Shown here piece after piece: positions 2-34,986 of a DNA stretch of 64,000 nucleotides. The stretch comes from a bacterium UBP16_UBA6123 (GTDB lineage: Bacteria > Muiribacteriota > UBA9980), in assembly GCA_002423385.1 (NCBI GenBank), contig DIVV01000217.1:8781-72780 (forward strand). The letters run 5' to 3'. Positions within the stretch are counted from its first letter, which is position 1. Each line of letters starts with the position of its first letter. Position numbers and translations under genes: made by a program. Under the pieces are notes generated by a model that did no database searches, was not told where the DNA came from, and worked only from the letters and a program-made list of their open reading frames with translations.

Positions 2-3000
2 GTTCCGGCGACGCAGTTTGACGGCACTAACGTTAACAGCCGCGATCTTACATTAGCGGTTAACGCGATCGATGATCTTGCGCCTGTAACGCCCAATAAA
101 AATATAGCACAGACATTCACGGCGGTAAATATAATCGATTGTGCTCTGCCTTACTTACTTTCGATCGAAACTATCGATAATAATACCAATGGTAAAATTG
201 ATTATTTAAAGTATACATACAGTGAACCTGTAAAAGACACCACTTACGCTAACCGCGGCTCGAGTGTTACGACAGCCGGCAATGGCGCCGGTAAGCTCGG
301 TACGCCTGTTATTGCTTCTATAACGGCTGCGGGCACTCCGACGGGAAATGTCGTTGACGATGCAACCATATTTATGGTTGTCAACGAGAATACTGAGCCT
401 ACGGCCTATAATACCGGAGTGACCGGTAATTTTACTTCACATTCAACGCCTGAGCCTTATTCATTCGCTTCTAAATTCGGAACCACCGGCACTGGAAACG
501 GGCAGTTAACTGCTCCCCGTGATATTGTGGTAGATTCGGGTGGAAACATTTATGTAACCGAGTGGACTAATAACCGTGTTCATAAATTCAGCGCTGCCGG
601 TGTCTATATCGATAAATGGGGCGGCACTGTCGCTGGAACCGGTGATAAGCAATTCGACAGGCCTGATGGTATTGCCATCGATTCCGAAAATTGTATTTAT
701 GTTGCCGACAGATATAATCATAGAATACAAAAGTTCGATTCACAGGGTAATTTTATTACTAAATGGGGTAAAAACGAAGGAGCCGGCGGAGCAGGAGCGG
801 CAAGCGCCGTTGCGGGCGAGTTCAATCAACCGGTAGGTATATGTGTTGATAAAAATGACACTATTTATGTCGTCGATTATTCAAATAAGCGAGTTCAAAA
901 ATTTAATAAAAATGGCGGTTTCGTCGAAGCCGTTATCACTGCCGGCCTTACTGGCCCGCAAGGTGTGGCAGTCGATAACGACGGAAATATATTCGTCGCT
1001 GAATACGACGGCGCCGATGGTAATCAAATCAAAAAATTTAACAGCTCCGGCGTTTTTCAAACTTCATGGGGTGCGACCGGGGCCGCTGATGGTGAGTTTT
1101 CCGGCCTGGTTTATATCAAAGTCGATAAATTTGGCAATGTTTACAGTGGTGAAATCACCAATAAGCGCGTTCAAAAATTTACTAACGCCGGCGTTTTTGT
1201 CACAAAATTTGGAACGGGACCCGGAACCGACGACGGACAGTTTGCCGGTGTTATGGGCGTATTTGTGGATAAAAACCAGAATGTATATGCAGTGGATATG
1301 ACTACTAATAACCGTGTTCAGGTATTTAGAAACGGCATGATCAAAGATATCGCCGGTAACAACATGGTGCCGGTTTCCGCCTTCGCGCTTACCGATAAAG
1401 CCTGCCCTGTCGTGCTTAATACGACTTCCACCACTCCCGACGGCTGGTATAAGGCAGGTTCGGCTGTTAATGTCAGCGTGCAGTTCAGTGAAACTATGAC
1501 CGTTAATACAGGCGACGGCTCGCCTTATATTATCCTTAAAATGGACGGGCCCGGCCCGAACAGATGGGCCGTATATAACGGCGGTTCAACCACCGATACG
1601 CTTTCATTCGGTTATACTATAGTCGATACCGTTGGCACTGAGGATAATGCGGCCGACCTCGACTATAACGAAACTACTTCGCTTAAGTTGAACGGCAGTC
1701 TCATAACGGACGCCGCGCCTGTGGCAAATACGGCCATTGTAACGCTTAAAACGCCCGGCGCCGCCGGCTCGCTCGGCTTTAATAAAGCTATAGTTATCGA
1801 TACGATCAAGCCGACCGTAGTTGCGATGCATACGCTGGATACCAATGGCGACGGCATTACAGACGCGCTTGAAATTGAATTCAGCGAAAGTATCAAAGAC
1901 ACGGTTACCGCCGACTGGGTGCAGGATTGCAGCGTCACGCCCGCTAACTTCGCTATGGACGAAACCGGTCAGGTTGGCTGGGACGCATTTGACGGGTTCA
2001 GTACGACCGTTACTTCAGTGACTCCATTGAATTCGACTATTAACGATAAATATATACGCCTTACAATATCTGTGCCTGCGCTGTCTGCTATAACCACTAC
2101 CGGTATCATGGATTTTAAATACACCGCCGGCACTCTCGCCGACTGGGCCGGTAATATCATGGATACTTGCGCCGCGGCGGCCGCTGTCGATAAAGCACAG
2201 CCACGCGTTAAAAATATTACTTCGGCTAATGCCGACGGCAAGTACCGTACAGGCAGAGGTATAGAAGTAAATGTAGAATTCTCCGAAGTCGTCATTAGGA
2301 CCGGAACGCCGCGCATACTTCTTGAAACCGGTGCGACCGATAGATATAATAATTATTCAGCCGGTTCAGATACCAGTATTTTATCTTTTGACCCTTATAC
2401 CGTTCAAATGGATGATGAAAGCGCCGATCTTGATTATAAAGCGACGACCGCGCTCGAGCTGAATCTCGGCACCATCAAAGATAAATCGACCACTCCGAAT
2501 GACGCCGTTTTAACTCTTCCCGCTCCCGGCGCGGCAGGCTCGCTCGGCGCTAATAAAGCCATAATTATCGACGGTAAAATACCTCCTGTTGCAGCTGGAA
2601 TGGCTTTCACGCCGCTCGATTTTACGGGCGCCGATACCATAAAATGGACGAAAAGCTCCACGCCTCAGATAACATGGACCGCTGTCGGCGCAGATAATGG
2701 CCCTGCGGGTTATCCGGCTGACGGTAAAAAATACAGAATAATATTTACCAACAGCACTCAGGGCGTAGCCGATCCATTGGGCGCCGATCCTGATACGGTC
2801 GTCAACGACGGCACCAATCGTATAGATTCCGGCTGGATAATACCCGAAAATTATACGCCCACGCTCGCTAACGGCGAGTATCGCTATAGAATTTACGTAA
2901 AGGACGATGCTTCTACAACCTCGCCAACCGGTAATGGTAATGTTTCATTTACAGCTATTCAAAAAATGCGAGTCGATTTAAGCCAGCCTGACGCCGTACC

Positions 3001-6000
3001 GACGGCTAATGCTGAAATTAAAAAAAGCACGGGCTCCTTTACCAGCATTAACACATATTACACGAATCTCGATTCAAACTACATAAGAAGCACCATAGAT
3101 GTAAGTGATAACGGTAATCCTGCTTCAAATTTCAATACGGCGGCTAAATACAGGGTTATAATTTGTGAAAACGCCGATCCCGGAACCGGCGTATTGTTTG
3201 ACACAGCGCATCCGATGGCGGGTTCGGTTTTTGATTCCAACTGGATATCCTATGCAACCTTTAACGCCGGTTATAATTTCAATTTTGCCGCTAAGACCGA
3301 AACTTATTATAAATGGCGCGTTTACACTAAAGATAACGTCGGCAATGTTAATTATTCAACCGTTAAGGATGTTTACTACGATATACAAAAACCTTCCGAA
3401 CCTTCGCTAACATTGAAAGTTGCAGATAAACATTACGCTGATCCTTCCGATTTTTACTGGACTAAAAATAATCAGCCCGGCTTTACCGGCACCGTCGTTA
3501 CCGATACGCCAGTCGGGCTTGACGGTTCAGGGCTTCATTCCGCCGGCGCTTACAGGTTTTTGATCTACACCACGCAGACGCCTAAACCTGCTGACGAAGA
3601 TTCATTTACGCTTGTTCCGGCCAATGTGGCTTACGATACAGGTTGGGCGGCTTCTACGACCGATTTCGCCCCGGCCGCCGCTCTGGCTAACGGCACTTAT
3701 TACTGCCGCATCTATGTCCGCGATAACGCGGGTAATATAAATTATTCAAACAATACAAATGCGGCCGAAAGCTGTAATGCTAACGGTGATCTTATAATTA
3801 AAGTTGACGTCACCGCGCCTTCGATTAGTGCCAATAATTTTTCGCCGCATGCCTGGGTTGATTCTATTAATCCAACTTTCGGACAGGTAGTCGATAATTC
3901 ACCTACTTCAGAGCAGCAAAAAGCGGGTTCCGAAGTTACCAGCAGCGATGGCGCCGGTTCTGGCATCAAATCATACAGAATACAGGCTGGTGTTGGTTTC
4001 AGCGCGTGGGATATCGGCGTTGAATATGATTCCGGCATTATTTTAACCGGGTTGACTACTATGCCAGCGCGTACAACCAATGTTAACGGCGGCGACGCCG
4101 GGTTTATAACTAAAACTTTCGCCGACGGCAATTTAGTTAAATGGATGGTACGCATTGAAGATAATGTAGGCAATGTTCGGTATACACCTACACCCACACC
4201 GTTGGTTATGACCTTCGGTATCGAAGATCAAAATCCTAACGCAGTCACGCATAATTTCCCCGGAAACGATCTGTGGATAAGCAAAAATACATTCGATGTC
4301 AAATGGAACCCGGGTACCGATGTCGGAACTGCCGGAGCCGGCCATTATATCGTTTATGTTGCCAGTGCTGATTTTGCGGGCAGCGATCCGGCCGGCTGGA
4401 GTATTATACATAATTCGGCTAATTTAATTCCGACCGTGAATAATCCCGAATTATGGACCGTTCCGGTTATGGCGCTGGCGACTTATGAAGGCAAGACCAT
4501 TTACTGGAAGGTAAGATTTTACGATAAAGCGCTCAACTATACCGATTCAGCCACGACAACTTTTAAAATCGATATGACCAAACCGACCGTTGCGCTCAAT
4601 GCGCCCACCGTGTCCGGTGCCGAACAGGCGCCGCAGTCTATAACCGGCACTTCACACTGGGTGAATACACGCACGCCTAAACTTAACTGGAGCGCGCAGA
4701 CCGATCCTGACGGCGCGGCGGGCCAGCCGGGTTCGGGTTGGCAGGTTGCCGGTCAGTACGGCGCGACCTACGCTTATAAACTTGAGATATCGACCACTAA
4801 TTTCGGCGCTATTTTCTGGGATAACGGCGTTCTGGGCACCAATCCGCTCGATGTTAATCACATCATTCCCGCCGGCGCTTCGCTCGTCGATAGCACATTT
4901 TACTATTATCGCGTCCGCTTTTTCGATAAAGGCGGCCAGGCCGAAGCCATAGACGGCAATTTCAATACGACTCCCGTATGGAGCGTTAAATGCGATATAA
5001 CTAAACCGCAAAAACCAGTTCTCGTATGGCCGGGCGATGCGGCCGGAACCGAATGGATAAGCGCGGCGAAGCCGCTTCTGCACTGGAGAGGCGGCGACGA
5101 TAACGATGGCCTTGCGACTCCGAAACCCGGTATCGGCACCAAGGAAGTAATCGTGCAGATCGCTACAGATGCGGCGTTTGCCGATCTCGTTTTAAACAAA
5201 ACTATTAATTATACCGGCACGCCTGCCGCGCTTGACACCTATCAGATGGCCGCAGTCGATCCATCGCTTGCTGAAAGCACTTATTATTACTGGCGCGTTG
5301 CCGTTAAAGATAAATTCCTTCAGCAGTCCGACTGGTCCGATGTGTTCAGGTTCCGATGCGATTTCACGAAGCCGACGGCCGCCGTTCTCGACGGGCCCGG
5401 TAATATATATCCGCCTGGCAATACCAGCGAGGACGCATACTGGATAAATACACGAACTCCTACATTTAAGTGGACGCCGCCCGTCGATGTTGACGTAAGC
5501 GGCCAGTGCGCCGGTATGGCAAGCGTCGAAATACAGATTTCGAATAATGTTACCGTCGTAGGGAGCGATGTTACATTTAACTCTTATTTTTACACGAAGA
5601 AACTTATGAAGGGTGAACTGGCTTACGAAAATGGCGAATTCACCCTGCCCGACCCGAATAAGCTATCCGGTAACGGACCTTATTACTGGCGCGTTATTTC
5701 TTACGATAAAGCCAATAATCCAGTCGCTAATAAAACTATTTCCGATGTTTTCGTTTTCAGCATGGACTTCGTGCCGCCTGATTATTTTTCGATCAATCAC
5801 GAATACGCCGATAGCGGCAGCGTTAATTTAACTGTGCTCAGAATAAGGCCTGTGGGCCCGAATAAAACTACCGGTGACGCCTACGACGAAGTCGCCGATT
5901 TGTTTACGGGCGTCGCGACCGCCGGTATCAGTAAAATTCAATACTGGTACAGAAAACATCCTTCTACGACATGGACGATGGCCGGCTGGACCGATGAAGT

Positions 6001-9000
6001 TAATATGGTGTATGAAGTAGTGCTTCCCGATAGCGGTGTTTATGATATCGGCGCTAAATTATTCGATCGCTCCGGCAACGTCAGAGGCTGGGATTATGTG
6101 AATGACGGCCAGGATAACCAGGGTTTCTTTTCTTCATATCATTATAGAGCAGGTGCGAGCGACACTAATGAACTACGCCTGCGCCGTATCGATCAGTCGA
6201 TATTTAATGATTGGGGCAATGAATCACCGACTTCGTTATTGCCGGCCGACGGTGGTTATAGTAACTGGATCGTTCCGCCTAATGATTTTATAGTCCACTG
6301 GAGCGGGCAGTATTATGTTTCTACGGCGGGTATCCATACTTTCCGCACAACGACCGACGATGGCGTCAGGTTTTATATCAACGACACAATTAGAATCAAT
6401 AAGTGGATAGACCAGGGGCCTACTCCTTATACAACCGATCCGAATTTATCCGTCGGCTGGCATAAACTCGATATGTATTATTATGAAAAAGGCGGCGGCG
6501 CCACCGCTAAACTCGAAGTTGACCTGCCCGGCGGCGGCACTACATATTTACCGGTTCAGATACCTGATGTCCGGTCGCAAAACCCCGACGCTATCATAAC
6601 CGACTTAAGGGTTGACGCACAGCCGCCTGAAAGTAAATTTCCTTCTCTTCTTTCCTATACCAGCGATGATATATTCAATGTCGCCTGGAAGGTCGAGGAT
6701 ACATTTGAAATGACCACCGATAATAAGTTTAAGCGTAATTTCGAAGACCTCGGCCTCGGCGGGTTTAAAAATAAAACCGCGAATTGCGCCGATATTAAAA
6801 ATACCGATGGTGTGGGGCTGGCGCGCGCTTATGATAATAAGCGCTGCTTAGTAGTTAAAAAAGGCACCAATAATTCGGTAATAGATTTTTTTACGCCAGT
6901 GGATGGGTCAACTACTTATAACCTTTCAACCTATAAGTATGTAAGTTTCGCATACTGTACTTCCGGTCCTGTCAAATTTGATTTAATCGCAACTATTACG
7001 GTTAACAACAGGACGGGTTTGTATGTTATTCAAACCTGCACCGATCCCGTAATCATTAATAAAACTGTCGCCGAAAATCCGGGTGTCGGCCTCGGCGTGG
7101 CGCCATGGGGACTTGCTGAATTTTCAGGTAAAACACCTAATTTTAGAAATGATGAAAACTGGCATACCGTTACTATTAATCTGTACGAACAGATCAAACT
7201 CAAATACGGCAAAGTTTCCGCCGACAGCGCTCTGCTTCGCTCCGTTTATTTTTACGGCGAAAATCCTTCCGATGATGCCGCGATATATATAGATAATTTC
7301 TCTCTGTCGAGTAAAGGTATGGCGCAATCTAATGTAGATTTCAGAGACGGCTGGCATGGTAAATGGACGCGCTGGGAAGACGATACCTATTCAAATACCA
7401 TAACTTCATATAATCGCGATTTTGAAGAGGCGCAGGACGGCTCCGTTTATTTCTTCCGCGGCCGCGCTATCGATAATGCGGGTAATATGGAACCGGCAAC
7501 AACCGCCGCCGATGAAAATAATTACAACCCGCCGCGAATTTCAATAGTTAAATCGCCGCCCGATCCGCCTACTAACTTAAGATGGCAGGCGCTTGACGCT
7601 GACGGTGTCACATGGGTGGAGGCTCGTAATTCAAATGCCAATCTTACCGACCCGAAGAACCGTAAAATAAGGGCGGCATGGGACCCGCCTAAAGATCCGT
7701 CAGGAATTAATGACTATTACATCCAGGTTGCCACGAGTGAAACTTTCACAACTAAAAGTTTGGTGAGCGCTCATACTAAATGGCTTACGAAAGCCGCGCC
7801 GGTTTTTGTTATTAATGACAGCTTCAATTCGGGTATCGATGCAGCTACCTGGCCGGTTAACGAACCGCCGTTTGTCAATAATAAAGGAGCCGCTTATTTT
7901 GACGGCGCTAATAAAGATAATAAAAAGTTAATATCTAAAGAATTTAACCTGGCATCGTATAACGACTACAGTTACGCGGCTTTTGAATTTAACGCATATT
8001 TCGACTCGGAAGACGCTAATGATTATATGCAGGTCGGAATTCAGTATTACGATAATAACACATCATCATGGGTTACCGATAAGTTTCTGGAGCTTAAACA
8101 GACCACGCAAAAATGGAAATTTAAATCTTACGTTATAAGCCATTACATAGGCAAGCGTATTAAAATATATGTCAATGTAAAAGCCGATGCTAATTCGCCA
8201 AACCCTAAGGCCGGTATCGATAATGTTAAAATATGGGTTGAGAAAAATTGCTATGAATTTACAGGTATCGACCAGACTATATATTACTTCAGGCTTCTAT
8301 CTAAAAATAACGCCGGATTCAGCAAACCGACGACTATCACCGATAGCTACCGCTCGTATTTTTCGACCGCGAAGGGCGACACTATAGGCACTAACGAAAC
8401 AAGCGTATCGCCCGCCAACTGGAACAGCCTTAATATTACAAACGATAAATTAGTAAGCGACTGGGGCTGGGGCACTACCGAGTTAATGACAGTTTATAAG
8501 GAAACTAATATATTTCAGGACAGTTTTGAAACGGGTATAAAGGCCGCAAACTGGCCGACTGTTGGCTCCCACTTTAAATATAACAATTCAATTGGTTGTG
8601 TTGAAAATACTACTGAAATTAAAACTGGTGGCGCAGCCGATAGCATACTGACTGAGGAAATGATATCTAAAGAATTTAGTCTTGCAGGCTATGACCGGGC
8701 TACAATGGAATGTAATGTTGCATATAAATTTGCTGACGTTAATACTCCTAACGACAGGGCGACGATCAGTGTTGAATATAAAGATGGCACTAACTGGATT
8801 ATAGACCAGTCATCTTATTATGATAAAAACACATCTGATCAGTTCAGTGGTGCATCTCCCAATTTAACAGATTGGCGTTCCGTGTCTTTAAATTTATCAA
8901 GTTCCTTAGGTAAAACCGCCGTACGAATCCGTATAATCGTTACCGCAAATAAAACTGCTCTTAATCCCATGGTTTATCTTGACAACTTCATGCTTAACGC

Positions 9001-12000
9001 CGCTAAAAAAGTCAACTCGAAGATCGCCGAAACTTTCTATGAAGATAACTTCGATACGGCTATAAGCTCCGACTGGACCAACGGCGATACCGGCGTGTTC
9101 AAGTGGCAGGACAGCGGTTATGATAAAACAAACGACGGCCATGTGCATATTGAAGCGACGGCTAACGTCAATAATAAAAAACTTACTTCTAAAATATTTG
9201 ATCTGTCAAAAACTTACGAAGGCTCGGCTGAATGTCTCATTTACCTTGATACTAATGATAGCGCTGATTCGATTAAATTCGCAGTTGAATATAAAAAAGG
9301 CGCAACGTGGACCGAAGATCAGAGTGAAACCATTAAAACCAATTCAGTCAACTGGAAAAAATTTGAGCTGCCTTTTAAAGACGCGCTCGGCAAATCTCAA
9401 GTCAGAGTGGTGTTTACGGCATATACGAATAACCAGCCGCTCAAGATAGGTATAGATAACTTTAAAATGACGCGCGGCAGCCAGTATATATTCAAGCAGG
9501 GCGATACCACTTCAAGTTTTTACAGGCGTGAAATTAAATTTTCTAAATATTCCAAAGGTAAAAAAATCACTATTTCAACGCAGGGCACGGCTAACTACTC
9601 GATATACGTAAATGGCGGTGAAATTTTAAATGGCAGCGATATAGCCACCGACGAAGTTAAGACATTTTCCAACCCGTACGACTTTAATTTCGGCGACGAC
9701 GATACATGCTGCGTAGTTACCTTTAAACTCACTAACACTAAATTCGATGAATTCAATTCGCCGGCTATTTCTTATAAAGTAACAGTTGATGAAAAGATGA
9801 AAGGCATAGTCGATACAACGCCGCCGCGGCCGATGAACCTTGTCGCTTACGCCAAAAGCGGTAAAAATATCGATAAAAAAGGCAATCCGTCGCCGTTCCA
9901 GTATTCAAAAGATTTTATAGTAACTACCGATTCATCCGATATAAGCGGTATTAGAAGATGCTACTATAAGGTGTGGTCCTATACCAATGCGGCCCTCGGC
10001 GGTAAAAACGCCCCGGCGAGCGATGTCGATTATACCGGTTACATAGATTTCCCGGCTACCGAAAAAACCGATAACACTATTAACATAGATGTAACCGTTG
10101 CTTTAGCGACTGAAGATTCATCGGGCCGCGAAACATGCAGCGTGTGGTTCGTCGATAATAACGATATCAACGGTTTTGATTACAGGGAAGAAGTATTGCT
10201 TCGCGTTGACCGCCAGAAACCGCCTAAACCGGTTCTGCTTAAATTTAAAGCGGATAACGGAGTCGAATATGTCCATACGACTATATGGGACCAGAAGAAA
10301 CCTACTTTCAGATGGGAAAAATCAGTTGATCCTAAATTTAACAATACGCATTTGAGCTCTGCGACTTTGATGGATGAGTCCGGCACCGGCCATTACCAGT
10401 TGCAATTAACTACTACGGACGATTTTGCTAAATCCGATCTCGAAGTTTTCATTAAAAATGATGAAACTATATTTACACAAGAAGTTAATTTCGTGCCTAA
10501 AGATAATCTGCCGATGGGTGATTATAAATGGCGCGTAAGGGCTATTGACTCTCTTACCGATACTACCGAGCTGAATTTTTCAGCCTGGTCGGATACAGGC
10601 GAGCTCCATTTAGACTTTCACCCGCCTGATTCTTATGTATTGATACCGCCGCCGGACGGCCCGTATTATCGCGAAACCGATAACGTCGAATTTCTGCCAA
10701 GCGTATATTTTTCGATAGTGCAGACCGATCATGCAAATAAATGGCATAAAATACTCAGTAAAATGGCGACCGGCAATACTACTACACCTGTTGAATTAAC
10801 CGACCTTACTCTCGACGACGATAAGCCGCGCGTCGATAGAGACGGTAATTACATCGTATTTGAAAGAAAAAATGCCGATAAATCCGAAATTTGCTATATG
10901 GAGTCGAGCGGTGAAAACGCGTTGATTCTTTCAAGACAAACTTATGATACTAAAAATTTATCGTCCGGCGATAAGATCAAGTATAGCGGTACCGTTAAGG
11001 CTACCGCGACTGGCGATTGTTATCAAAACTATATATTCTCGACTAAAGAAATCGCTCTCACAAGTGATCAGACCGGATTGTATATTGAATATGATTACTA
11101 CGCAGACACGACCGGCGCCGGTATATGCGGTATCAACATAATGTATGAAACAACCTCCGTCAGCTATGGCGTTAACGGCAAGTGGGAATTAAGGCTCGAT
11201 CCGGCGTGGCCCGCTACGGTTAAACCTTCCGCCGACCTCGGAACGGCACATCATAATAAATGGCAGCACCGTAAGATCGAAATACCATCAACTTTAATGA
11301 TAAACGAAGTCGCTATTAAAACCTGGGAAGTTTCATTCGAAAATGATACGCCGGGTAAAAGCATAAACGCTTATTATGATAATATCACAATAACCAATTC
11401 TGACGGCCGTATTCAAAACGCTATTTATTCACGCGGCCCGCTTGAATTTACTCAGGCTTCCGATTATTACAACAATTATGAAAATTACTCAGTTTCGATT
11501 GAAAAAGAGAGAATAACCAACGAAGAAATCAACATTAAAGTCACTAAAGATAAGTCGCCTGATATTTCTTCGAACGGCCGTAAAGTTATATTTTCATCGT
11601 TTGACGGCTACAGGCGTTATCGTCTTAAAATAAGCGAGGCGCCGTCCGGCTATACGGTTAAAGCTAATATACTCGATGATACGGCAAAAGGTATTTTTGA
11701 TTCCTCGATGGATAATGGCGATGACTTTAGAATTATATGGCAAAACTACGACATTGCCACTTCTAAAACGGTTGAAGTCGATCTTGACAGATATCTTGAA
11801 AAATTCACCGCCGATGAAATAATCGTATGGTTTAAAATACAGGAAAGCGCTGGCTGGAGCGGTGGGCTTTCAAATTATTACGTTGAATACGGCCGTAATA
11901 AAGTGGGTCTTCCGCCGACGGATTACACTAAAGTTTATAAATATTATGACGATTTCAACGAATATTTTGACACTTCTAAGTGGAAAGCGATAGGTAAAGC

Positions 12001-15000: not shown

Positions 15001-18000
15001 GACGTCGAATGAAAATAAATATATGACCAATATACCGTTTCCTGTATATAACAATGACCTGTACAGCAATATACAATTTGTAGATGCGACCATGGAGGTT
15101 ACCGGTTGCGTTTACCGTCAGATATCCAACCGGCCAGATTTTAAAGATGTTTTGTGGTTGAAAATGAAAACTTCCGAGTCGAATCCTATCAGTATATGGG
15201 AATTTTCGACAAATACGGTCGGCCTGTTCAATTACGATATCACTTATGATGGTTACTCTACTCCTTACCTTAACAGTGTAGGTAATAAAGAACCTGATAT
15301 TTACGATGGTAAAAAAGTGGTTTATGCCCGTTATAAAAACGGCGCCGGCTTGATTTTAGGCCCTGTTACAGATGAAATAATTCTCGACAGGACCATGCCG
15401 GCAACTTCACTGCAGGGCGTTACAATTAACGATGATGAAAAACTTGGCGTCAACGGCGGTGAAATCGTTCTTCAACTTACCGCGCTCCATGATTTCGAAG
15501 ACGGTACTTCTTCGGTTACCTCGAGAATGGGAACCGTCGAAACCGCCGTAATAGTGAGTGAGAAATATAACGCAACTTACGTTAATGAATTTAATTATCC
15601 TGACGCGAGTTTAAGGTTGAGATACCACTCCCAGGACACCGGTGAAATAGAATCCGGTTCATATACATCACCGGTATATCTTATTGGAACTCACATCAAG
15701 CAGTCGCCGCTCGGACGTATCAGGTGGACACAGGTATCTGACACCGATAATTCGGTTGAAATATGGCTGCGCGCTATTCCTGATAAAGGCGACGGCACTC
15801 CAGACTTTGCTAATGCCGGCGACTGGAATAATGGAGGCGCCGCTCACAGCAAGGTTGGAATCGGTACTACCGAAGTAGTTGCATGGCAGGATATGGTTAT
15901 CGAAGGTAATACCGTGTCGGCGTTTGATTATCAGTTTATTCAATTCAGAATCAAGTTAACGACAAAACTGCCGACTGGCATATATCCTAAAATAGACCAG
16001 ATCGAGTTTGAATTTAAGCGTAAATCTGAAATGACTTCTTTTGATCCGATAAACGATTCTGAAGGCAGCTCGGGTTATTTTGAAAATCCAGTAGTGGTGA
16101 ATATAGCTAAAAATAACGAACTCGATAAAATAATGTACCGCTGGTCTTATTCCGCATCTCCAGGCGCGGTCGGCGCATTTACGGAGCTCATTCCGACGGC
16201 TCTGCTTAACGTTGAAAAGCCGAAGTACATACTTGAAGTTAATCAGGACCGGCCTTCGTTCCTGCAATGGTTCAGTGTTTCTAATACGGGTGATACTGAA
16301 GCGGTTACCCATTCAAAACTGTTTAAATTTTCGCTTAAAGGCACTAAAGATTCATGGGTTAAAATACTTGATAACGCCGCGCCTTTCGATGATGGTATCA
16401 TAATGGGCCCGAACGTTAAGCTGAGACTTAATCCTGCCGTTCCCGGTGATCCTTCGCTGCCGGGTAAAATTAAAATATCCACTAACCCCGAAATGACGCC
16501 TTTATTAGCAGAACTCGAATATACGGTGAGCCCGTCGCCTGTCGAGGAACCTATTACGCTTAAAGCCCCCGATGGCCTTTCACCCGCGCTCGAAGGGCGA
16601 GTTACCGTTTACGCGCAGTTTGAAAGTTCGTTCGGTGAGACTACCGAGATTGTATCGCATTCGATTATGCTCGATCTTAACAGCCCTAATGCCATTCATA
16701 ATCCTAACGCCAATCTTTACAAAATTGGTGATTCCGAATATGCCGATTATTCGAAAGGCAAGTTTACCAATGTTACTTATGCCGATATTAACGGCGATTC
16801 ATTTGAAGTGAAGCTCGGTTATAAAAACGATCTGGTGCTTGATAAATTTGATGCATTAGCGGCTAACTGGGATACGCCTCAGGGCGTTGCGGCCGATTCA
16901 GACTCGGTTTTCGTCGCCGATAGCGTTAAGCAGAAACTTTATAAATTAAGCACGCAAACTCTTGCCGTTCAATCGTCGAAAACGGGGTTAGGCTCTCCGT
17001 GCGGCGTTGAAGTTGACGGCGATCATGTTTATGTTTCTGATAAGATCAGGCATATCGTTTATAAATACCGTAAATCCGATTTTACGAAAGTCGGTTCTTT
17101 CGGCGTTGAATATAATGCGGGTTCTCTGGAAAATATGCTCAAGGCTCCCGAAGATATAGCTATAGATCCGTCCCGTAACTACCTTTATATAAACGATGCC
17201 GGCAATAAACGCATAGTTAAAGTCAGTCTCGAAGGCTTAAGTTACGTAGCCGATAAACCTTATACATTTTTTGAAAAAATGGATTTAGTATCGGGTATAG
17301 CAGCGGATGACGAAGCTATTATTCTGTCTAACCCGGGCGGACATATAATTGGTAAATACGATTCTAATTTCGCTTCCGGCACCGCTCAGAGTCTGTTCGG
17401 TGAATATAATTCCGCGGATGACGACGACGCCCATCTTAACACGCCGCTGCAGTTAGGTCAGGACGCCGGCTATATTTACGCTGCCGACAGCATGAACAAC
17501 AGAATAGTCAAAATGTCTTATAATCTTAAGTATATATCCAGTTACGGCTCCGCTTCAATACCTTATCTGAACAATCCGGTTGCCGTTTCTGGATGTAACG
17601 ATAGAATTTTCGTGTCGGATTTGAACAATAAAAGATTGGTTTCTTTAATTAAAGTGCTCGATGAATATGAATTGAAAGCTACGCTTGGCGCTTCTGATGG
17701 AAGTTTTTCGCCTCCCGGCCAGAATAAGCAGGACGTTCCTTTCAGGCTTTATGAACCGGCTATGATTACCTCCGATACGGTTTACAGTTATGTGGCCGAT
17801 ACTAAAAATCATAGAATATTGAAGGTTAATAATGAAACAATGCTTGTAGAGCGTCAATATGGCGTTACTGGTGTTTTGGGCGCGGACACGGCTCATTTGA
17901 GTAATCCGAATGCCGCATGTCCTGATTTTACTGATAAAACCGCCGGTTATATTTTCGTTTCAGATACAGGTAATAAGAGAGTTATTAAACTTAAAAATAA

Positions 18001-21000
18001 TTTCGGCAGTTTCGCCTATCTGACTGATTCTTTATCAACGGGCACGCCGGTTTCAGTAGATTTTGCGGGCGGGCTGTGCGTCGATAACAGCGCGGTTCCC
18101 GCTGAGCTTTATGTGGCCAATAAAACGAATATAATTGTATTCAATGCGTCAACGATGTTAAAAATCGATGAAATAACCGCTCTGGATGGAGCTTTTGTTA
18201 ATGTTACCGACGTCAAGTATGCCGGCGGTTATTTTTACGTTGTTGATAACGGCCGTCATCAGATTTATAAAGTGCAGAAATTGCGGCCCGTGTCGGCTGA
18301 AATCGTTAAGTATAATTCATTGACGACCGCTTCGGCATTTGCTAAGGGGTTGAATTCTCCTTATTCAGTCGCAATTTCTCCGGATTATAAAGACGTTTTT
18401 ATTACCGATAGGCAAAATTATAGAGTGCTTCACCTCGACTCGTCGTTTAATTATAAATCGAATCTGGGTTATAACGGTATCGAGGGAATCGGAACGGTAA
18501 GCGTTACCCTTAATAAGCCGATGGGCGTTACCTGTATAAAAACGCCTGCCAGCAAGTATATACTTGTTACCGATACTCTAAATAACAGGCTCATTAAAGT
18601 TAAATACGATACTTATTCATATTCGCCTTACGGCGAGTTTGCCTCGCGCGTAATAAGCCTTGGTAATTACGTCGTGCCTCTTGCAGATGGAGTCGGGGGC
18701 GCCGGCATTAAAGTTGAAACTAAATATTTGCATTACGATCCCGTTTCCACTCAGGGCGTTGAATTATGGGTAAGAACCGCTCCGGACCGCGGTGATGGAA
18801 ATTATGACGGACGTTATTGGTCGAAGTGGGAAAAATTCCTGCTGCCTAATATTACCGACGTAAGCGTCAATAATTCTTTTATTAACAGGCGCGCGTTGAG
18901 CGATACGCAATTCGTTCAGTATAAATTGATTTTATCTACTCAGGACCTCCGCCAGACGCCGAGTGTCCGCACTACAATGTTTACCTATAAGCGCGGCTGC
19001 GATGGCGACCTTGTGACACCGAGCCCGCACACGGGGTATTATCTCACTCCGCTTTATGGTACCCTGGACCATTTCAATATAGTTTATGAAGATGAAAATA
19101 TATTGAGCATCAACTATGATCAGGGCAACGTTCATTATAAGTGGAATGCCGGCGCTGAACAGGTTATTAACGAATTAGTTTACGCGGTAGCCGAAGGCGT
19201 TAACACGCTTACATATTACGCTAAAGATATCGTGGGCAAAGTGTCGCCGACTGCGAGTATAACTTATTCTATCGATACCGTACCGCCGGTTAACCCCGCG
19301 GTACGCGTTACTGAAACCGCGCCGATCAGTACCAACAGTGTTAATCTCGATTTGACCGGTGTTATGGATACTAATGCCACTCCTCAACTTCAGATGATAG
19401 TATCTGAATTTGCCGATTTTAATAACACTACATGGGAAAGCTATTTAACAAGCAAGAACTATATTTTCACCGGCACTCTCGAAACCGGTATTAAGCGCAT
19501 TTACGCGCAATTTAAAGATAATGCCGGCCAGAAAACCCTTAAAGTATGGGACACCGTGCGACAGAAGAAAGCTAGCGAAGCTCCAGTCGCCCGTATTAAA
19601 TCTTACGAGCATGGCGGCAAGTATGATTTTGAACGTGGTTCTCTCAACGGAACGCAGGTTGACCGTTACGGTCATGTGAGTCTGGCTAATGATACTTTCG
19701 GTTTTGTGTCTTCGCTCAGCGATCCGAATTTGAGTAAACCTATGGGAGTCGCGGCTTATTATAATAAAACCTTGAAATTGTTCGAAATATTCGTAGTTAA
19801 CTCGCAAAATCATACGATTAATAAGTTTGTTTCGAGCGATGACACTCCTAATATAATAGAATTTGTAGCATCGTATGGTGAAACCGGTGTCGCCGGCTCC
19901 GATGAAGTTCATTTTAACACACCGACCGGCGTGGCTTATGACGGCACATACGTTTACGTCGCCGATTCGCTTAATCACAGAATCGTTAAGCTCTATAATC
20001 AGTCGGTGCCGCTTAATAAAATGAGTTATATGTGCCAGTTCGGCAATCCCGCATCGCCTGGTACGGGAACTTCAAATCTTAATACGCCGTTCGATGTCGC
20101 CTGGGCCAATGGTTATCTGTATATTTCCGATTCCGGAAATAAGCGTATCGTAAAATTAATATCTAACAACATGAAATACATTGCGGCTTTGAATACCGAA
20201 GTTAATCTGCGCGGCCTTACTTCTGACGGTTTTTACTTATACTACATAGCAGACAAGGATGTAACACGCGTTAAAATTGATTTTGGCGGCTCTCCTCTTA
20301 AATATAGCGTGGTTAACGCAGGTGCGCTGGTTGATCCTTATTTCGTTCAATCTGATGGGTTGAACCTTTATATAGGCGATTCCGGGGCTAAAAAAGTAAA
20401 AATGACCGCGCTCGATTTTAAAATTAAGAGCGAATACGACCAGCTTGTGAGTATTGGCGGAATAGCTTCAGTTCAGGGTTTATCCACGGTTTATTTATTT
20501 ATAGCTGAAAGTTCGACTAATAAGTTATACAAGTTGAATTCCGTTGACACATTCTACAAGAGTTCAGGCATTTATATTTCGGAACCGTTAGATATCGGTT
20601 CTCATGTCACTAAAATAGATAAGGTTTATTATACGGTTGAAGGCAGTTCTAAAACCAGCGCCAAGTTCGAAATGAGGGTTTATCCCGACAAAATAGATTC
20701 ATTGGGAGAACATAGCGCTGATTTAAGCTATTACGAAGGCGAAAACGGATGGACGGTTCTCGATGAAACCGGAAGCGAATTCCCGCCGTCCGGTTTCCCG
20801 ACGCAGCCTAACTCGATGACTAATTTTGCGGGCCAGTACCGTTATTTTGTACAGTACAGGGCTACTTTAAGTACTATAGATAAACAGGTCACTCCTATAT
20901 TGAAGAATTTCAGGGTGGAATTTTTGAAACGCGGCGACGGCCTTTCGTCTAATTTACTTTCGCTTCCCGGTATTTCAATCTATGCTGATAACTCTAACGA

Positions 21001-24000
21001 CTGGCCTGGCTGGTATGTAACTCCGCCGTCTTTTTCAGTGTCCGCGGCTGAATGGGACCTGTTTAAAATTAAATTGACTAATAGCGCCAATATGGCCGGT
21101 ACCGAATACAGCTTTACCGCCGGCGCTAAAATTCCTGTAATCACTACGGTTGCGCCGACGACGGCCGGACTCGGAAATTTTATATTCACCGAAGGCACTA
21201 ACAGCGTTACCACCTGGTCAAAAGATATTTCCGGTAATGCTTCTTTTGGCGAAACCATTGAGATTTATTATGATAAAACGCCTCCCGGCAAGCCTGAAAT
21301 CATACTTGTCAGCACGGCAATAGATGATTCTGAAAATCAGACTTATTACGTTAAAACTTCAAAAATAAGTTTTGATATAAAAGTCGAATCGTCAGACGGC
21401 CGTCCAAGGCGCACAGTATTTTCCAAAAATGTATCCGAGCTTACCGTGCCGCCCTCAGATTCGACAAAATGGTTTGAAATGACGGATAAAACCGTTGCGG
21501 GTCACCTCATACATAAAGTGATTGACTATAATCTGAGTGAAGGGTTGAACATAATATATACCAAGTGCAGCGATCAGGCTGGCAATATTTCTAACGTCAG
21601 CTATATTAAAGTTCACCTGGATACCACTAAGCCGAAATCTTATAACGACAGGGTAATTCACGCTTCTAAAGAAGCGTTCGAGTTGAGCGGCCGTGAGTTG
21701 GATGGCGTATTGATAATAAACGACGGGCTTATGATGTCAAAATGGCTTTACAATAAACATTTTGATTTCTCGCCAGCCCTGCCGAATTTCGTTTCTTCCG
21801 ACAGTAAATACGTTTATACCTGCGATACTTCGATTACCGGCCCCCGAATAGGCGTTATGGGCAAATTTTTAGACGGCATCAAGGCCACTAAAAATAAATT
21901 CATATTGGGTACTACCGAGATTCTTCTGAAAGCCCCGGTGGCGGTAATTCCTTTTAATGATAAGCTATTCGTGCTCGATAAGGATTTACATATTTTATTC
22001 AGGGTAGCCTTAGATAAACACACTAACGATCCCGCTAAAATAATTGGAAATACAATGGAAGTAGTATTCGGAACCGTTAATACGCCTTCTACATCGCCGC
22101 GAGGCCTGAATAGTCCTCAGGGATTGTCTATTTTCGGTACCGAAGAGATATATGTCGCCGATACTCTTAATAACAGGGTATTTAAAACCAATGTAAATTT
22201 GACCAGTATAACGGCCCAGTACGGATCGGTTTTTGCCAGCTCCATTAAATCGCCTGTTTCGGTAACCGTTGATCAGTCAAATGTATTTTTAGCCGAAAAA
22301 GGTTTAAGCGGTCAGAACCGCGTTATACAGTTGGATAAAAACTTAAACGAAATACAGTCGTTTGTCGATTCGGCTTCCGGCGTTTTAATGGACGATATAA
22401 AAGCGATAACCTCCGACGGCAGCTATCTTTACGTGTCTCATAAAAATGGCGCCGAGCACAGAATCTCGAAATTTATAATCAATCCGGTTATAAGTTATTT
22501 AACCTATGTTAAAGAATTTACGATAGGCGGCGTGGCAAGCACTTTCAATGACGTACGGGGAGTTTTTGCCGACGGCGAAGATATTTATCTGGCTGATACG
22601 GGCAATAAGCGAATAATTAAAACTTCGTCTATTTCGTGGAAATATAAATCACAATTCGGCGTTACGGGCGTTCCGGGAAATGACGCGTTTCACCTCAACA
22701 GGCCCACCGCGCTCTGCTCGGACGCTTCACATCTATATGCGCTTAATTACCATCCGACTTATAATGGCATAGTTTATAAGATCAGAAGCAGTTTTATCCG
22801 TGATACTGAAAACAGATATATATTCCTTGAAACACCCACCGGCGTAGCCGCTACCAAGGATTTCGTATATCTTGTCAACCCCGGCGCCGGCGATGATAAA
22901 AAAGTATTGCTGATATGGGGAAAAGATATGCAGACAAGATATCCTTATGATAACTCGGTCGTATCGCCTCCTTTGATTTATCCTATCGATATATGTTCGT
23001 ATTTCGACGGATCGAAGTATTTCGTATATATCGCCGATTATCAGTCGCAAAAGGTATATAAATACGAAGAAAAATTAGGACAGTTATTGAGAGTCGGCGA
23101 ATCGGCGACGGGTAAACTTATAAGGCCTATAGCTTTGAGCGTCGATGCAAGCGGCGTGTACGTTCTTCAGGGAGACAGTACTGTAGTTAAATTAACTCCT
23201 GATATGCAAAATGTCGCTACAAGCTACGGCCGCGAAATCAGATTCGGTATCACCGGCGTTTCCGGCGTGGACGATTTCCATTTAGATCCGTCTCCTAAGT
23301 TAGATCTTACAGGTGTTACGGTATATTCAAAAATAGTGTCTACCGGCAACCGTGTTTATGTGACGGATACCAATAATCACAGGGTAATGAAATTTGATAC
23401 TTTCCTTAATTATAAGGGAGAATTTGGTGAAAGAGGAGTTCCGGGCACCGGCGATAATAATTTTAATAAGCCTTCCGGTATTACGATTTTCGCCGGCGAT
23501 ATATACGTTAACGACAGCGGTAATCAGCGTTTGGTTAAAACCGGAAACGATGCGGGCGTTTATACCTCCGCATGGGTTAATATAGGATCGCACGTTAATA
23601 AGATGAATAAAATGAATTACAGCGGAAATATTCCGTCCGGTTCAGGGCTTAATATAGAAGTGCGATTCGCTTATCAAAAAGAAGGCGTTCCATTCATGCC
23701 GGATGTGACTGAATGGGAAGCGCTTTCCCAGATGGCCGATGCTCCGGTGCAGACGCCGGTTAATCATCCTTCGCCGGAAATTAACCAGTATTTGCAATAT
23801 AGAGTTTCATTCTTGACTGATTCATCGGCGAGCGTTCCGCGGCTCAATAATATCGAGTTTTCTTATGTGAAAACGGCCGATGGCGAACAGGACCCCGATC
23901 TCACGGTGGCTTCCGGCCTGGGTTATTTCAAGAAATTCCCGGAAATATCTCTTGCCATGAATGAAAAAGGCGGTCTGTTCTACCAATGGTACAGGTACAA

Positions 24001-27000
24001 TGAAGTTACCAATTCTGAAGATGCGGTAGATCCTACCGTGCCGAATACTTATAATTTATTCGGAATTAACAGTGTTTTACCGATACCGCTTGTTGGCGGC
24101 GAGCGTAAAGACGGGCTTTACATAATGAGATATTACTCCCGTGATTATGTGGGTAATACTGAGTCAACCAATTCTTATCAATATCGTATAGATACTACCC
24201 CGCCGAAGATATTAGAAGGCAAGGCCGTCGCTAACGGTATAGCCGGTTACTCGTTTAATAAAAAAGAAGGCGCCGTAGATATTTATGTGAGACTCGATAA
24301 TAATACCGATAAACTTCCCGATTTCAAGAATGGCGTAATTACCGGTAAAGTCCGTATCATATCAAATTCGACGTCTTATGATTCAAATGCCGATTTTACG
24401 GCAGGCAGTAATTTTATTTTAACTTACTATGAAGGCGCTAACGTTCCTGTCGGACAGGTATGGTTCACCGCCCGCTGGAAGATCAATCCTAACGACTACG
24501 TTCAGGAAGGCTCCGACTTTCAGGTTTACGTTTCGGTTAAAGATCCCGCCGGTAACGAAGATGAAAACTTCGCTTATGGCTACGCTAACTCGAAACCAGC
24601 CCTTACGCTTCAAATTTATGGCGGCGCGCCTAATACGCGCAACCAGCAGATCGTTCATGTAAGTCGTCAGGATTTCGCTAAAGGCACGCTTAAAGAGGTC
24701 AGCGTAGAGCGCAGTGGAACGAAAGGTCTTGTAAGGCTTCGTACAAACGCCGATTGGGGCGGTCTTGCTCAGGGCACCGGAACGCCTGCGTTCAGCAGGC
24801 CTTACGCTATTGCATCTGACGGCAATTACGTTTATCTGTCGGATATTAATACAAACTATCTTTACAGGCTTACCTCGAGCATGACGGTTTTATCGACTCT
24901 TACAAGTGTTGTATCCGGCGCGCAGGGTATCGCCTGTGATGGTCAATTTGTTTATGTAGCCGATACCGGTAATAACAGGATATTAAAATTGGATTCAGCA
25001 TTATCCAAAATTTATGCGGAATGTTTATACACCGGCGTGCCCGATGGTATCGACGGTCCTGTTTCTATCGCGGTTGACAGCCAGAGGGTTTATTTTACCG
25101 ATATGAAAAAACGTATCGTAGTATTGAATAAATCACTCGGTTATGTGACGGAATCTCCCGTTATAATCGGAGGGCATACGCTTTCCGATAGGCTTAGAAT
25201 TTGCACCGACGGCAGTAATGTTTACTTACTGGATCGCGCGGCTTCGAAGATATTGCATTTATCTTCCCAGCTTACTTATAAGTCTTCTTACGGCAGCGTC
25301 GGAACCGGTCAGGACCAGTTTACGGACGCGCGTGATATATCGACCGACAGCAGTTACTTTTATGTTACTGATAATGGTAATAACCGTGTTATAAGATTGA
25401 ATATAGAAGAAGACGGCAGTCTTTCCTTTAAAGAACAATTTATGGGTACGGGCAAAGTAGATCCAGGAAAATTAATTACTACGGTTTTATCGGAAATTAA
25501 CGGTGTCGCTACCGATGGATATTATACATATGTGTGCGAAACCGGTAAAAACCGGATAATAATGACGGGCGACGTAGCTAAAAAAACCGAATGGAACGAG
25601 CTCGCGCAGTTCGGCGTTACTAATGTTTCAGGTAATGACAATACCCATTTGAAGACTCCTAACGGTATTTCATTTTCAGGCATTTATTTTTATGTAGCCG
25701 ATACCGGCAACGACCGTGTTGTAATGCTCGATCAGGAATTAGGTTACTACAAGAGTTCGCCGGCTGCTTTATACAGCTCGCCTAAAGATTTATATTACAA
25801 CGAACAGGGTCTTTACGTGCTCGATGCCAACGGAATAAGCGTTTCAACCGATGAAGTCCAGACAAAAGCGATTACACGCGCATTGGCGGGGCTTAAAGGC
25901 ATTTGCGGTTACGACAGTATTAATTTGCTTGTTACTTCCGGTAATGATATCATATGGCTTAACGGCATTACTCTCGCTAATATTAAAAATTCTATGAGTT
26001 ATTCAGGCATACCGGCTCCCGCGGCGCTTAACAATCCGACCGGTTTAGTGACTAACGGCGTTGATGTTTACGTTTGTGATACCGGTAATAACCGTATAGT
26101 CAAATTTAAAATCGATAAGTCGATACCGGGTGATCATAAGTTGATTTATCAGGGCCATTATTCACAGGATGTTTCGGGGCCTTTATACATTTCGCTCAGT
26201 CCTGATTTTATATACTTTACCAATGGCGGTTCGTTTAAAAATATAGTTAAACTCGATTTAAACCTTAATTTTATCGCTAAATATCCGGGAACCGGAACAA
26301 TGAACACTCCTACAGGCATAACGGCTTTCGGCCAGTATTGTCTGGTATCGGAAAATCTCGGACATAGAGTGGTAAAAAGCGGTATATCAAAATTCGCGGG
26401 CGAAGTGGCCGTGGAAAATTCTTCGGATGATTCGAACGTCGGTCATTCAAACCACTCTCTTGCCTTAATTACAAGCGAATCAGACGCGACGAGCCTTCCT
26501 TTAGTTATGTATGAAAAGAACGGCGTCATTTACCATAGACTTTCAAAAGACGAGGACGGCAATGTGTTTGATGGGCAGGTGGCCGATTTTAACGGCACGC
26601 AGTTCGCCCTGGCTTCTAAAGCTAATAACGCTTACGTAGCTTATGTGGATGGCGGTCAGATAAAATTTTCGACTACGGCCAACGGTAAAACTTTCACATC
26701 GCCGAATTTGGTGAGCGGAGCCTATTTGGGCTGTTCCAATCCATCTATAACAGTAGATAAAGATAACTTTATATACATAGCCTGGGAAAGCGGCGGTAAA
26801 ATTAATTATAACCGTTCGACGCTCGCCGTCGTTAATACCAATAACGCTTTAAATCCGTCTTTATTTGCGGGAACCAATATAAAACAGTTTGAATCATCCG
26901 CGGACGGTATCTTCAGTCAGGTGTCGCTTACCGCCTCGCGTGAAACCAGCGCGATTCACGCCGTCTGGATCGTCACCAAGGACGGATTCAGCACGGTTAA

Positions 27001-33834: not shown

Positions 33835-34503
33835 ATGAAAACATATAACGGGATTAAATTGCTGGGTTACCAAAGCGGGCGCCGGGGCGTGCTGCTGTTC
33901 GGTATAATAATGGTCATAGCGATACTCGGCATAGTTTATTTCAAGGGATTCACGCTTTTTAGCACCGAAAACAGGCGCGCGAGGGAGCATGAACTCGATT
34001 CGAGGCTTTCACAGATGCGCAAAGCGCTGGATATGGCTAAAAATAATGAAAATTTCAGGTCTGATTCAGATTTTGAAGGTCTCGACGAAAAAACTTCTTC
34101 GGATGACGTTCAGAAAAAATTAGTGGCCGCGCTTCGCAACAGCTCTACTTATCAGCGTAATAAAATGGATGCGAAGTCCGTTTATTTAAGGCAGGAATTC
34201 GACGCCCCGATGCTCGAGGTTGACGTAGATGAAAAACTTAATGTGGGATGGCGTATTGCCGTCAACCGCGTTAATTCGTCGAGCTTCGAAGGCGATAATT
34301 TCATGAAAATTTACAGGATTACGGAACAATCGAACGTGGCGCAGGTTAATCAATGGTGGTTCGCGACGACCACCGAAAACAGCCTTATTTCAATCAGAGC
34401 TGATTCCGATAAACCTTCTGAGTCCGATTATCCAGGTCAGCGCGACACTGCCGGCGCGAAGGGCAAATACGGCAAAAACGTACTGCAGATGAAAGTGAAG
34501 TAG
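33835..34503 (+). CDS. Hypothetical membrane-anchored protein (N-terminal TM helix, charged/coiled periplasmic or extracellular domain)
   Basis: GGAG 8 nt upstream of ATG. N-term RRGVLLFGIIMVIAILGIVYF is hydrophobic. No recognisable catalytic motif. It lies directly downstream of, and co-oriented with, the giant gene. Confidence 0.5.
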   Translation: MKTYNGIKLLGYQSGRRGVLLFGIIMVIAILGIVYFKGFTLFSTENRRAREHELDSRLSQMRKALDMAKNNENFRSDSDFEGLDEKTSSDDVQKKLVAALRNSSTYQRNKMDAKSVYLRQEFDAPMLEVDVDEKLNVGWRIAVNRVNSSSFEGDNFMKIYRITEQSNVAQVNQWWFATTTENSLISIRADSDKPSESDYPGQRDTAGAKGKYGKNVLQMKVK

Positions 34504-34533: not shown

Positions 34534-34986
34534 ATGAGCGGCGCGTCGTATAAAAGGCGGTATTTAATGAGCTATTTATCTAAAGTCGAACTGCTTGAAA
34601 TTTTATATGATATGGATTCGCCGTCTAATGAAGGCTCGCTGCTCGTTCATGAAAGCAGGAGCGGCGAAGAGCTTTTATGCTGCGACGTCGATTGCGGCGA
34701 TCATCTTGATTTATTTAAAATAGGCGGGCATTACGAAGCTTTTTTCTCCACGTTCGGAATGATAACTCACGCAGACGAAGAAAACGCCGTGCCGAAAGTC
34801 GAAAAAAACCAGTTTCGCGGCGTAACGCGGTTAAACGCCACTATCATAGATATCAGGGATAACTGGTATATATGCGACGCCGGTTTTTATGTTTACGCCA
34901 TGTCGATAACCAATATAAGCGGCCTTAAAAAAGGCGACAGGGTAACGATAGCCGGCGGGCTCAGAGTCGATCTTATCGTTAAATAA
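34534..34986 (+). CDS. Hypothetical protein (150 aa)
   Basis: ORF follows the previous gene after 30 nt. No recognisable motifs. Convergent with buk, 10-nt gap, with a small palindrome taaact-atc-agttta at the junction. Confidence 0.4.
   Translation: MSGASYKRRYLMSYLSKVELLEILYDMDSPSNEGSLLVHESRSGEELLCCDVDCGDHLDLFKIGGHYEAFFSTFGMITHADEENAVPKVEKNQFRGVTRLNATIIDIRDNWYICDAGFYVYAMSITNISGLKKGDRVTIAGGLRVDLIVK

Follow-up and report, generated by a model that had tools for sequence, protein, structure and literature searches.

The window examined here, a 64,000-nucleotide (nt) stretch of DNA (contig DIVV01000217.1 of assembly GCA_002423385.1, positions 8,781 to 72,780 of the forward strand), opens inside a giant gene whose product carries eight six-bladed NHL propellers, and its source appears, from sequence comparison, to be an uncultured bacterium related to Candidatus Wallbacteria. 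Translation of the window shows an uninterrupted plus-strand frame from nt 2 to 33703, with a stop codon at 33701-33703, this frame (frame 2) being open right from base 1, with at least 11,233 sense codons in view. The open reading frame (ORF) listing begins at the ATG at position 374 (374..33703), giving a product of 11,109 amino acids (aa) and 1,228 kDa. Because the frame is open to the first base, the gene is cut by the left edge of the window and the N-terminus lies out of view; the ATG at 374 is not the true start, and the protein is longer than 11,233 aa. The 124 aa encoded ahead of this ATG (window 2-373) resemble a Ca-loop/immunoglobulin (Ig)-like domain at aa ~470-600 (IETIDNNTNGKIDYLKYTYSEPV compared with HTLDTNGDGITDALEIEFSESI). 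Against the protein collections, the N-terminal 1,124 aa matched only ordinary NHL proteins of at most ~2,000 aa, and a metagenome scan with the N-terminal region yielded only generic NHL propellers at 30-48% identity, so that the missing N-terminus was not recovered. As a whole, the giant protein is absent from the protein collections searched, which hold fragments only.

The visible product is acidic (isoelectric point 4.97), contains 0.5% cysteine and is rich in threonine, serine, aspartate and asparagine. Across the visible 11,109 aa, the Kyte-Doolittle mean over 19 residues never exceeded 1.58, and no transmembrane segment was found. Over the same length, the GG.G.D pattern of RTX nonapeptides had zero matches, and motif searches for LPXTG and CxxC likewise found none.

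To count the NHL blades, the Pfam NHL family (PF01436, gathering score 20 bits) was scanned in 1,000-aa chunks and in further chunks offset by 500 aa. The chunks holding NHL blocks 1-5 scored 111.8, 50.6, 26.5, 70.0, and 49.8 bits, and the offset chunks 50.4, 57.2, 68.7, and 24.1 bits; all five blocks thus pass the gathering score, and beyond block 1 few repeats are significant on their own. A search for the blade core with a strict regular expression gave 26 matches, every one of them within the five blocks, which make up 20% of the protein, compared with 1.4 +/- 1.2 matches in shuffled sequences. An iterated profile, constructed from blades of the protein itself, detected 6+10+4+10+9 = 39 blades in blocks 1-5, and within each doubled or tripled gap between detected blades lie one or two degenerate stretches that repeat the hydrophobic-strand pattern. 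The full count is therefore 6+12+6+12+12 = 48 blades, 39 detected by the profile and 9 degenerate, the latter placed by spacing, weak motif and conservation in orthologues. As the degenerate blades are conserved in orthologues as well as the canonical ones, they are constrained structural elements and not linkers. In total, the census gives eight six-bladed NHL propellers, one N-proximal and canonical and 2+1+2+2 divergent (Table 1). The original prediction, made from the sequence alone, had placed NHL blades in these five blocks and had estimated about eight six-bladed propellers from some 47 blades in one polypeptide. The outcome that it had named as refuting, NHL scores under threshold in most blocks, did not arise. 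The blocks, the number of propellers and the single continuous frame all hold, as do the blade counts of blocks 1, 2, 3, and 5 and their coordinates to within a few bases; block 4, however, starts at nt 21776 and not 21925, ~150 nt earlier, and has 12 blades instead of 11, and the polypeptide is larger than had been described, since its ORF leaves the window.

Matches to solved structures provide additional support for the fold. By sequence, block 1 aligned with the NHL propellers of TRIM71 (E = 1.7e-47), Thin (5.6e-42) and the extracellular sensor of PknD (1e-21), and block 5 with Pizza (E = 7e-14) and PknD (5e-12). Block 2 (611 aa) was modelled with AlphaFold at a mean predicted local distance difference test score (pLDDT) of 74 and a predicted template modelling score of 0.56. 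The model contains two groups of blades, eleven in all and each four-stranded, with a linker of low confidence between the groups (aa 5773-5789), and its best full-length Foldseek matches were the tandem six-bladed pairs of LRP6 (E1E2), LRP4, and LRP2 (E ~1e-17 over ~640 columns). A second model, covering the spacer, block 3 and the next domain (pLDDT 72), shows five blades, lacking blade 4, followed by a beta-sandwich; its best matches were the NHL propellers of Thin, Lin41/TRIM71, PAL, NHLRC2, TRIM2, and Brat. All six blades were thus modelled for propeller 2b and five of six each for propellers 2a and 3, with blade 4 of the latter two below pLDDT 40 in both models. Blade 1 of propeller 3 is weak in the hidden Markov model search and confident in the structural model. 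For blocks 4 and 5, the six-blade count is a prediction from the sequence pattern.

Table 1. Features of the giant gene and its surroundings in the window (nt positions are those of the window; aa positions are those of the 11,109-aa listing).
Feature	Position (nt)	Strand	Residues (aa)	Remarks
Visible giant gene	2..33703	+		Open at left edge, ATG 374 internal
NHL propeller 1	503..1333	+	44-320	Six canonical blades; most typical of the eight
PA14	6272..6538	+	~1967-2055	Pfam 31.3 bits, cutoff 24
Ig_Rha78A_N/FN3-like repeats, ~8	~2650-5770	+	~760-1800	
MAM/Reelin-subrepeat-B-like jelly rolls, three	~7810-9490	+	~2480-3040	Weak, below Pfam thresholds
PD40/TolB-like propeller repeats	12761..13117	+	~4130-4248	Pfam PD40 47-49 bits, cutoff 20.9
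jr copy A	14135..14521	+	4588-4716	Downstream of PD40 region
jr copy B	15641..16027	+	5090-5218	Downstream of PD40 region
NHL propeller 2a	16865..17653	+	5498-5760	Block 2, blades 1-6; blade 4 (aa ~5637-5664) degenerate, poorly modelled
NHL propeller 2b	17744..18607	+	5791-6078	Block 2, blades 7-12; all six modelled four-stranded
jr copy C	18620..19027	+		Adjoins NHL block 2
NHL propeller 3	19727..20542	+	6452-6723	Six blades; blade 4 degenerate, poorly modelled
jr copy D	20558..20965	+		Adjoins NHL block 3; modelled as beta-sandwich
NHL propeller 4a	21776..22630	+	7135-7419	
NHL propeller 4b	22691..23548	+	7440-7725	
jr copy E	23552..23911	+		Adjoins NHL block 4
NHL propeller 5a	24788..25570	+	8139-8399	
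NHL propeller 5b	25646..26380	+	8425-8669	Three blades degenerate
jr copy F	27530..27913	+		After block 5 and a ~360-aa region
C-terminal ~1,550 aa	29051..33700	+		No Pfam/NCBIfam match
222-aa gene	33835..34503	+		Single N-terminal hydrophobic helix
150-aa gene	34534..34986	+		No family match
TetR-MacAB-TolC-type efflux operon	44998-50936			TetR, then OEP-HlyD-ABC-FtsX/MacB (45814-50936)

The eight propellers are related to one another and far apart. All are significantly similar (Z = 5-33 against shuffled sequences), with local-alignment identities of 25-44%, and blade cores share a mean identity of 27% and a maximum of 57%. Core identity within a block equals that between blocks, the exception being block 1, at 40% within. 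A self-BLAST of the DNA of the gene found only two internal matches in 33.7 kb, of 42 and 68 nt at ~80% identity. The shorter (884-925 with 1160-1201) joins two blades inside block 1, the longer (1733-1800 with 2504-2571) falls in two Ig-like domains whose protein sequences are 55% identical (aa 423-484 with 680-741), and neither connects two different NHL blocks. Self-BLASTP of the whole protein returned the trivial self-match only, and a sliding-window search was used instead. Toward the outside, propeller 1 shares 38-46% identity with ordinary database NHL propellers, and block 1 is much nearer to these than to blocks 2-5; for blocks 2-5, identity to anything beyond the orthologue group is only 22-31%. 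Duplication of whole double-propeller units was also considered as a route to the array and set aside, the correspondence of a propellers with a propellers and of b with b being only weak.

Orthologues of the C-terminal 1,109 aa were found in four metagenome-assembled genomes (MAGs), namely Ca. Wallbacteria GWC2_49_35, ADurb.Bin243, SRP192927_co10_55 and Wallbacteria P24860_112, that of SRP192927_co10_55 covering the C-terminal 664 aa only, at 91% identity. Of these four loci, three (L002, L003, and L005) extend upstream and are collinear with the window over aa 6661-11109, and blocks 4 and 5 are kept at 47-74% identity with few insertions or deletions in GWC2_49_35, ADurb.Bin243, and P24860_112. 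Other assemblies contributed seven additional orthologous fragments, which span aa 4185-5645 and 6737-11109 with identities of 51-80%. Each propeller shares 47-77% identity with its own orthologues, the blade cores being 50-76% identical and the loops between them 37-70%, such that the loops evolve faster. Since the orthologues are far more alike than the paralogues, multiplication of the propellers predates the divergence of these species. As judged from the alignments, these comparisons show the propellers to be old internal duplications that occurred before the split of at least four sampled species, with each propeller then conserved individually.

The same comparisons bear on whether the array exists as assembled. 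The window comes from a metagenome-type assembly, in which collapsed or chimeric repeats could mimic a long array, and the region might equally be non-coding or a pseudogene. Against this, the frame runs through 11,233 sense codons in a row, the DNA has hardly any internal similarity by which an assembler might be misled, and the block order is collinear in three independent MAG assemblies and the seven fragments at 47-80% protein identity. In addition, a contig from the independent Logan assembly encodes an identical C-terminal 1,019 aa. We therefore regard an artefact as extremely improbable. The claims of the original prediction that blade sequences differ substantially between blocks, and that this speaks against recent tandem duplication or assembly collapse, are supported by the near absence of DNA self-similarity, the distance between paralogues and the collinear orthologues.

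One orthologue departs from the single frame. In L005 (Wallbacteria P24860_112), it is called as two overlapping ORFs, 3-4274 and 4082-13150. The break falls immediately before NHL block 5, near aa 8075, and the product of the second ORF has its own database entry, of 2,957 aa (P0237). The break may reflect a real split or, in a short-read MAG, a frameshift error. If real, it would suit an arrangement in which the giant gene is a polyprotein or operon-like fusion, cleaved post-translationally or split in some lineages, so that the propellers work on separate products; for Omnitrophota giant proteins, such cleavage has been proposed. The frame is nevertheless continuous across the corresponding point in the window, L003 and L002, no cleavage motifs were identified, and a sequencing error may account for the break itself, which leaves this arrangement quite unlikely in our judgment.

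Sliding-window self-comparison and an alignment of six units revealed a higher-order repeat, overlooked in the original prediction, that holds blocks 2-5 and leaves block 1 outside. Each unit consists of the propeller or propellers, a ~130-aa domain that we call jr, a second sandwich, an Ig-like domain, and a short conserved spacer (pattern "H.s..dF..G.l..v.v...G...L") leading to the next propeller block. The jr domain has the pattern G.Y.S..i.lGshv ... yiQYr..L.t.d...P.l..i.f.y.r, and the second sandwich ends in D..GN...iD...P. The jr domain follows blocks 2, 3, and 4 directly; after block 5, a region of ~360 aa intervenes. By eye, this region (26441-27523, aa 8690-9050) looks like a BNR/sialidase-like propeller, with the recurring strands "YIAWESGG", "AVWIV", "YIVWTG", and "VVWES" and one Asp-box-like "SIDAGVNF"; it has no Pfam match even at E <= 1. 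A further proposal, that each propeller is inserted into the following sandwich with the spacer providing its first strands, was not supported, as the spacer was modelled as disordered (pLDDT ~30, from a shallow alignment).

The jr domain had no sequence match in Pfam or the PDB even at E = 10. Its homologues nonetheless number 778 representative proteins at E <= 1e-3 and 141 at E <= 1e-10, and their carriers are usually multi-copy proteins of 1,000-7,000 aa; in protein P0222 and its relatives, a jr domain follows each FG-GAP propeller. Among 46 shorter carriers, propellers (RCC1, NHL, LVIVD, lactonase-type, and FG-GAP) occur in only ~9, and the others carry fn3, GH16, Big_5, LamG_3, invasin, cadherin-like, and F5/8-C domains. 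This repertoire is an extracellular one, and the tie of jr to propellers is only partial; jr as a dedicated companion of propellers was accordingly only partly supported. From the spread of its homologues, jr is a real and so far unannotated family and a candidate for a new domain family. The conserved propeller/sandwich/Ig super-repeat and this sandwich family are the most original by-products of the analysis.

Outside the NHL blocks and the higher-order repeat, the recognizable domains are PA14, PD40/TolB-like, Ig_Rha78A_N/fibronectin type III (FN3)-like and MAM/Reelin-like modules (Table 1). Searches with the unannotated segments, including the C-terminal ~1,550 aa, yielded nothing usable from Pfam at E <= 1 and nothing from NCBIfam. 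The C-terminal ~1,550 aa are among the best-conserved parts of the protein, at 51-82% identity, the orthologues being comparable over aa 6661-11109.

Partial matches to enzyme families raise the question of whether some or all of the NHL propellers might be catalytic (lactonase, lyase or PAL-like), which would make the protein a multi-enzyme polyprotein. The Pfam family SGL scored 48.3 bits in block 1 and 26.3 bits in a block 5 chunk (cutoff 26.3), and Arylesterase 26.4 and 30.6 bits (cutoff 21.3); PAL was also among the fold matches of block 3. The SGL matches, however, span stretches of only 38 to 51 residues and those of Arylesterase single repeats of ~34 aa, that is, short elements common to the whole clan. 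No full-length match to a catalytic family was obtained, Vgb_lyase reaching 29 bits of a required 50 and the ScyF-like NCBIfam model 169 of 350, both far below threshold. Moreover, the best sequence matches are to the non-catalytic NHL domains of TRIM71, Thin, the PknD sensor, and Brat. On this balance, we consider catalytic propellers very unlikely.

Two small genes follow the giant gene. The first, of 222 aa, is syntenic after it in L002, L003, and L005 at 63-86% identity, and in L004 its position falls in a run of N; the second, of 150 aa, is found behind the giant gene in each of the four MAG loci and on the Logan contig, at 38-100% identity. From this synteny, the two may be functional partners of the giant protein. 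Just past the stop codon of the giant gene, nt 33704-33760 form an A/T-rich stretch of repeated TAGTGTA-like units (GATAGTGTATAATAATAGTGTATAGTGTATAGTGCATAG), the first ~30 nt of which are kept in L002 and L003, and a GC-rich inverted repeat, GCCGGG...CCCGGC, follows it in the window only. Beyond the two small genes lie kinase/PTA-type and ordinary housekeeping genes. No type I secretion system (T1SS) genes adjoin the giant gene, the only nearby ABC system being the MacB/FtsX-type efflux operon 12 kb away. This MacAB-TolC-type operon indicates a diderm envelope and probably plays no part in exporting the giant protein.

Taken as a whole, the protein is, in what we consider the rather probable interpretation, a huge exported, non-enzymatic cell-surface scaffold with many binding sites, likely multi-specific, that carries eight old NHL propellers in one chain. 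It would be exported and lie extended at the cell surface. Glycans, or molecules on the surface of other cells or particles, would find many different binding sites on the propeller faces and on the PA14, PD40, and MAM/LamG-like modules, with the spacers between them being supplied by the Ig/FN3-like and sandwich domains. An extracellular role is suggested by the PA14, PD40, MAM/Reelin-like, and Ig/FN3-like domains, the lack of a transmembrane segment and the acidic Thr/Ser/Asn-rich composition, as well as by the fact that the relatives of propeller 1 and the carriers of jr are built from typical surface domains. On the relatives of block 1, these include PF18962 and PF00395, which we take to be the T9SS sorting and SLH families, respectively. 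The dockerin family PF00404 is also present on such relatives (family named in bioRxiv 10.64898/2026.06.07.730766).

The original prediction had proposed that so many propellers serve multivalent binding to one repetitive target, such as a polysaccharide or the surface of another cell, and this is plausible. With paralogous propellers at 25-44% identity and each at 47-77% in its orthologues, however, it seems likely that every propeller has its own conserved role, and a multi-ligand set of sites or a structural role would fit better than eight copies of one site. The scaffold would then work like the multi-ligand receptor LRP2/megalin and not as an avidity array of identical sites.

Conservation of the propellers one by one, while the paralogues diverged, would also be expected if the protein were mainly architectural, an S-layer-like element, sheath or fiber in which the propellers are rigid blocks or oligomerization interfaces, each kept for contact with a fixed neighbor. 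Archaeal and Bacteroides surface-layer proteins that combine propellers with Ig/PKD domains are among the fold matches of block 3 (1l0q and 3dsm), and the two syntenic downstream genes could encode partners in assembly or anchoring. PA14, MAM/LamG-like, and PD40 domains, on the other hand, are usually binding modules, the faster evolution of loops (37-70% compared with 50-76% for cores) suits evolving binding surfaces as well as lattice contacts, and there is no direct evidence of a lattice. We judge a mainly architectural role unlikely.

Several observations weigh against the binding scaffold as the favored interpretation. Some two thirds of the chain, among them the conserved C-terminal 1,550 aa, are without a family match, and an enzymatic or other activity could be hidden in these parts; the NHL fold itself has enzyme members too. 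There is no recognized secretion signal in the visible protein, where RTX and LPXTG were both negative, and the N-terminus lies beyond the window, so that a signal peptide or anchor is not visible. Finally, both structural models are of moderate confidence (pLDDT 74 and 72), with one blade unmodeled in each.

Giant NHL-rich proteins and ordinary multi-propeller NHL proteins are already documented, and the protein described here joins them. A giant protein of Omnitrophota has up to 37 Pfam NHL copies (bioRxiv 10.64898/2026.06.07.730766), and giants with RCC1 propellers are known from Oscillospiraceae, the role of giant proteins in adhesion or predation having been discussed (bioRxiv 10.1101/2023.11.21.568195). 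Like these giants of uncultured bacteria, the present protein exceeds 10,000 aa and carries many propeller repeats among adhesion-type domains, with an inferred attachment to cells or polymers. Unlike them, it belongs to a Wallbacteria-related lineage, different at the phylum level, and it consists of anciently diverged paralogues in a defined super-repeat and not of one high-copy repeat. The marks of the Omnitrophota type (West-Roberts et al. 2023), namely numerous transmembrane regions and a divergent SecA-DEAD domain, were not found in the visible 11,109 aa, and neither were dockerin domains. Giant proteins of Wallbacteria were not described in any paper returned by a full-text literature search. 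Ordinary NHL proteins (annotated as "6-bladed beta-propeller" or "NHL repeat-containing protein") likewise have several propellers on a secreted-type chain, and those with at least four NHL propellers are common; in protein P0063, with its 1,806 aa, 22 Pfam NHL repeats are each significant on their own. These proteins are, however, 5-10 times shorter, and their blades are regular and easily detected, unlike those of blocks 2-5.

The solved NHL proteins PknD (1rwi, from M. tuberculosis), TRIM71/Lin41, Thin, Brat, TRIM2/3, NHLRC2, and PAL share the repeat family and the fold but have one propeller per chain, in contrast to eight here, and neither the RNA binding of TRIM71 and Brat nor the catalysis of PAL is implied for the giant protein. 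LRP2/megalin, LRP1, LRP4, and LRP6 have 4-8 YWTD six-bladed propellers of the same structural clan on a large extracellular chain with small spacers, and, by analogy with them, the propellers of the giant protein would each bind different ligands. The resemblance is one of working principle and fold and not of family membership: the giant protein is bacterial, its blades are NHL and not YWTD, and Ldl_recept_b, EGF, and LDL-A had no Pfam matches in it. As in the giant adhesins exported by T1SS (LapA, SiiE, and MpIBP), the chain is in the megadalton range and acidic, with few cysteines, Ig-like spacers, PA14 and no transmembrane segment, but it lacks the RTX nonapeptides and adjacent T1SS genes of that group.

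A bolder form of the scaffold interpretation, which we put forward as doubtful, is that the eight propellers are eight different receptor sites through which an extracellular protein exceeding 1.2 MDa captures partner or prey cells or polymers, and that a propeller together with jr forms an undescribed and widely used adhesion cassette. If true, this would be a bacterial counterpart of the megalin-type multi-ligand receptors, and the cassette, with NHL here and FG-GAP and RCC1 elsewhere, would be built around an unannotated family of at least 778 representative proteins. Current understanding is not overturned by the giant protein, which provides a well-delimited example from a hardly studied lineage, conserved across species and not an assembly artefact. 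The jr sandwich family is common in large surface proteins, often after beta-propellers, and could be curated as a new domain family. As its propellers are old and separately conserved, the giant protein is a good case for the question of whether such arrays serve as multi-specific receptors or as structural lattices.

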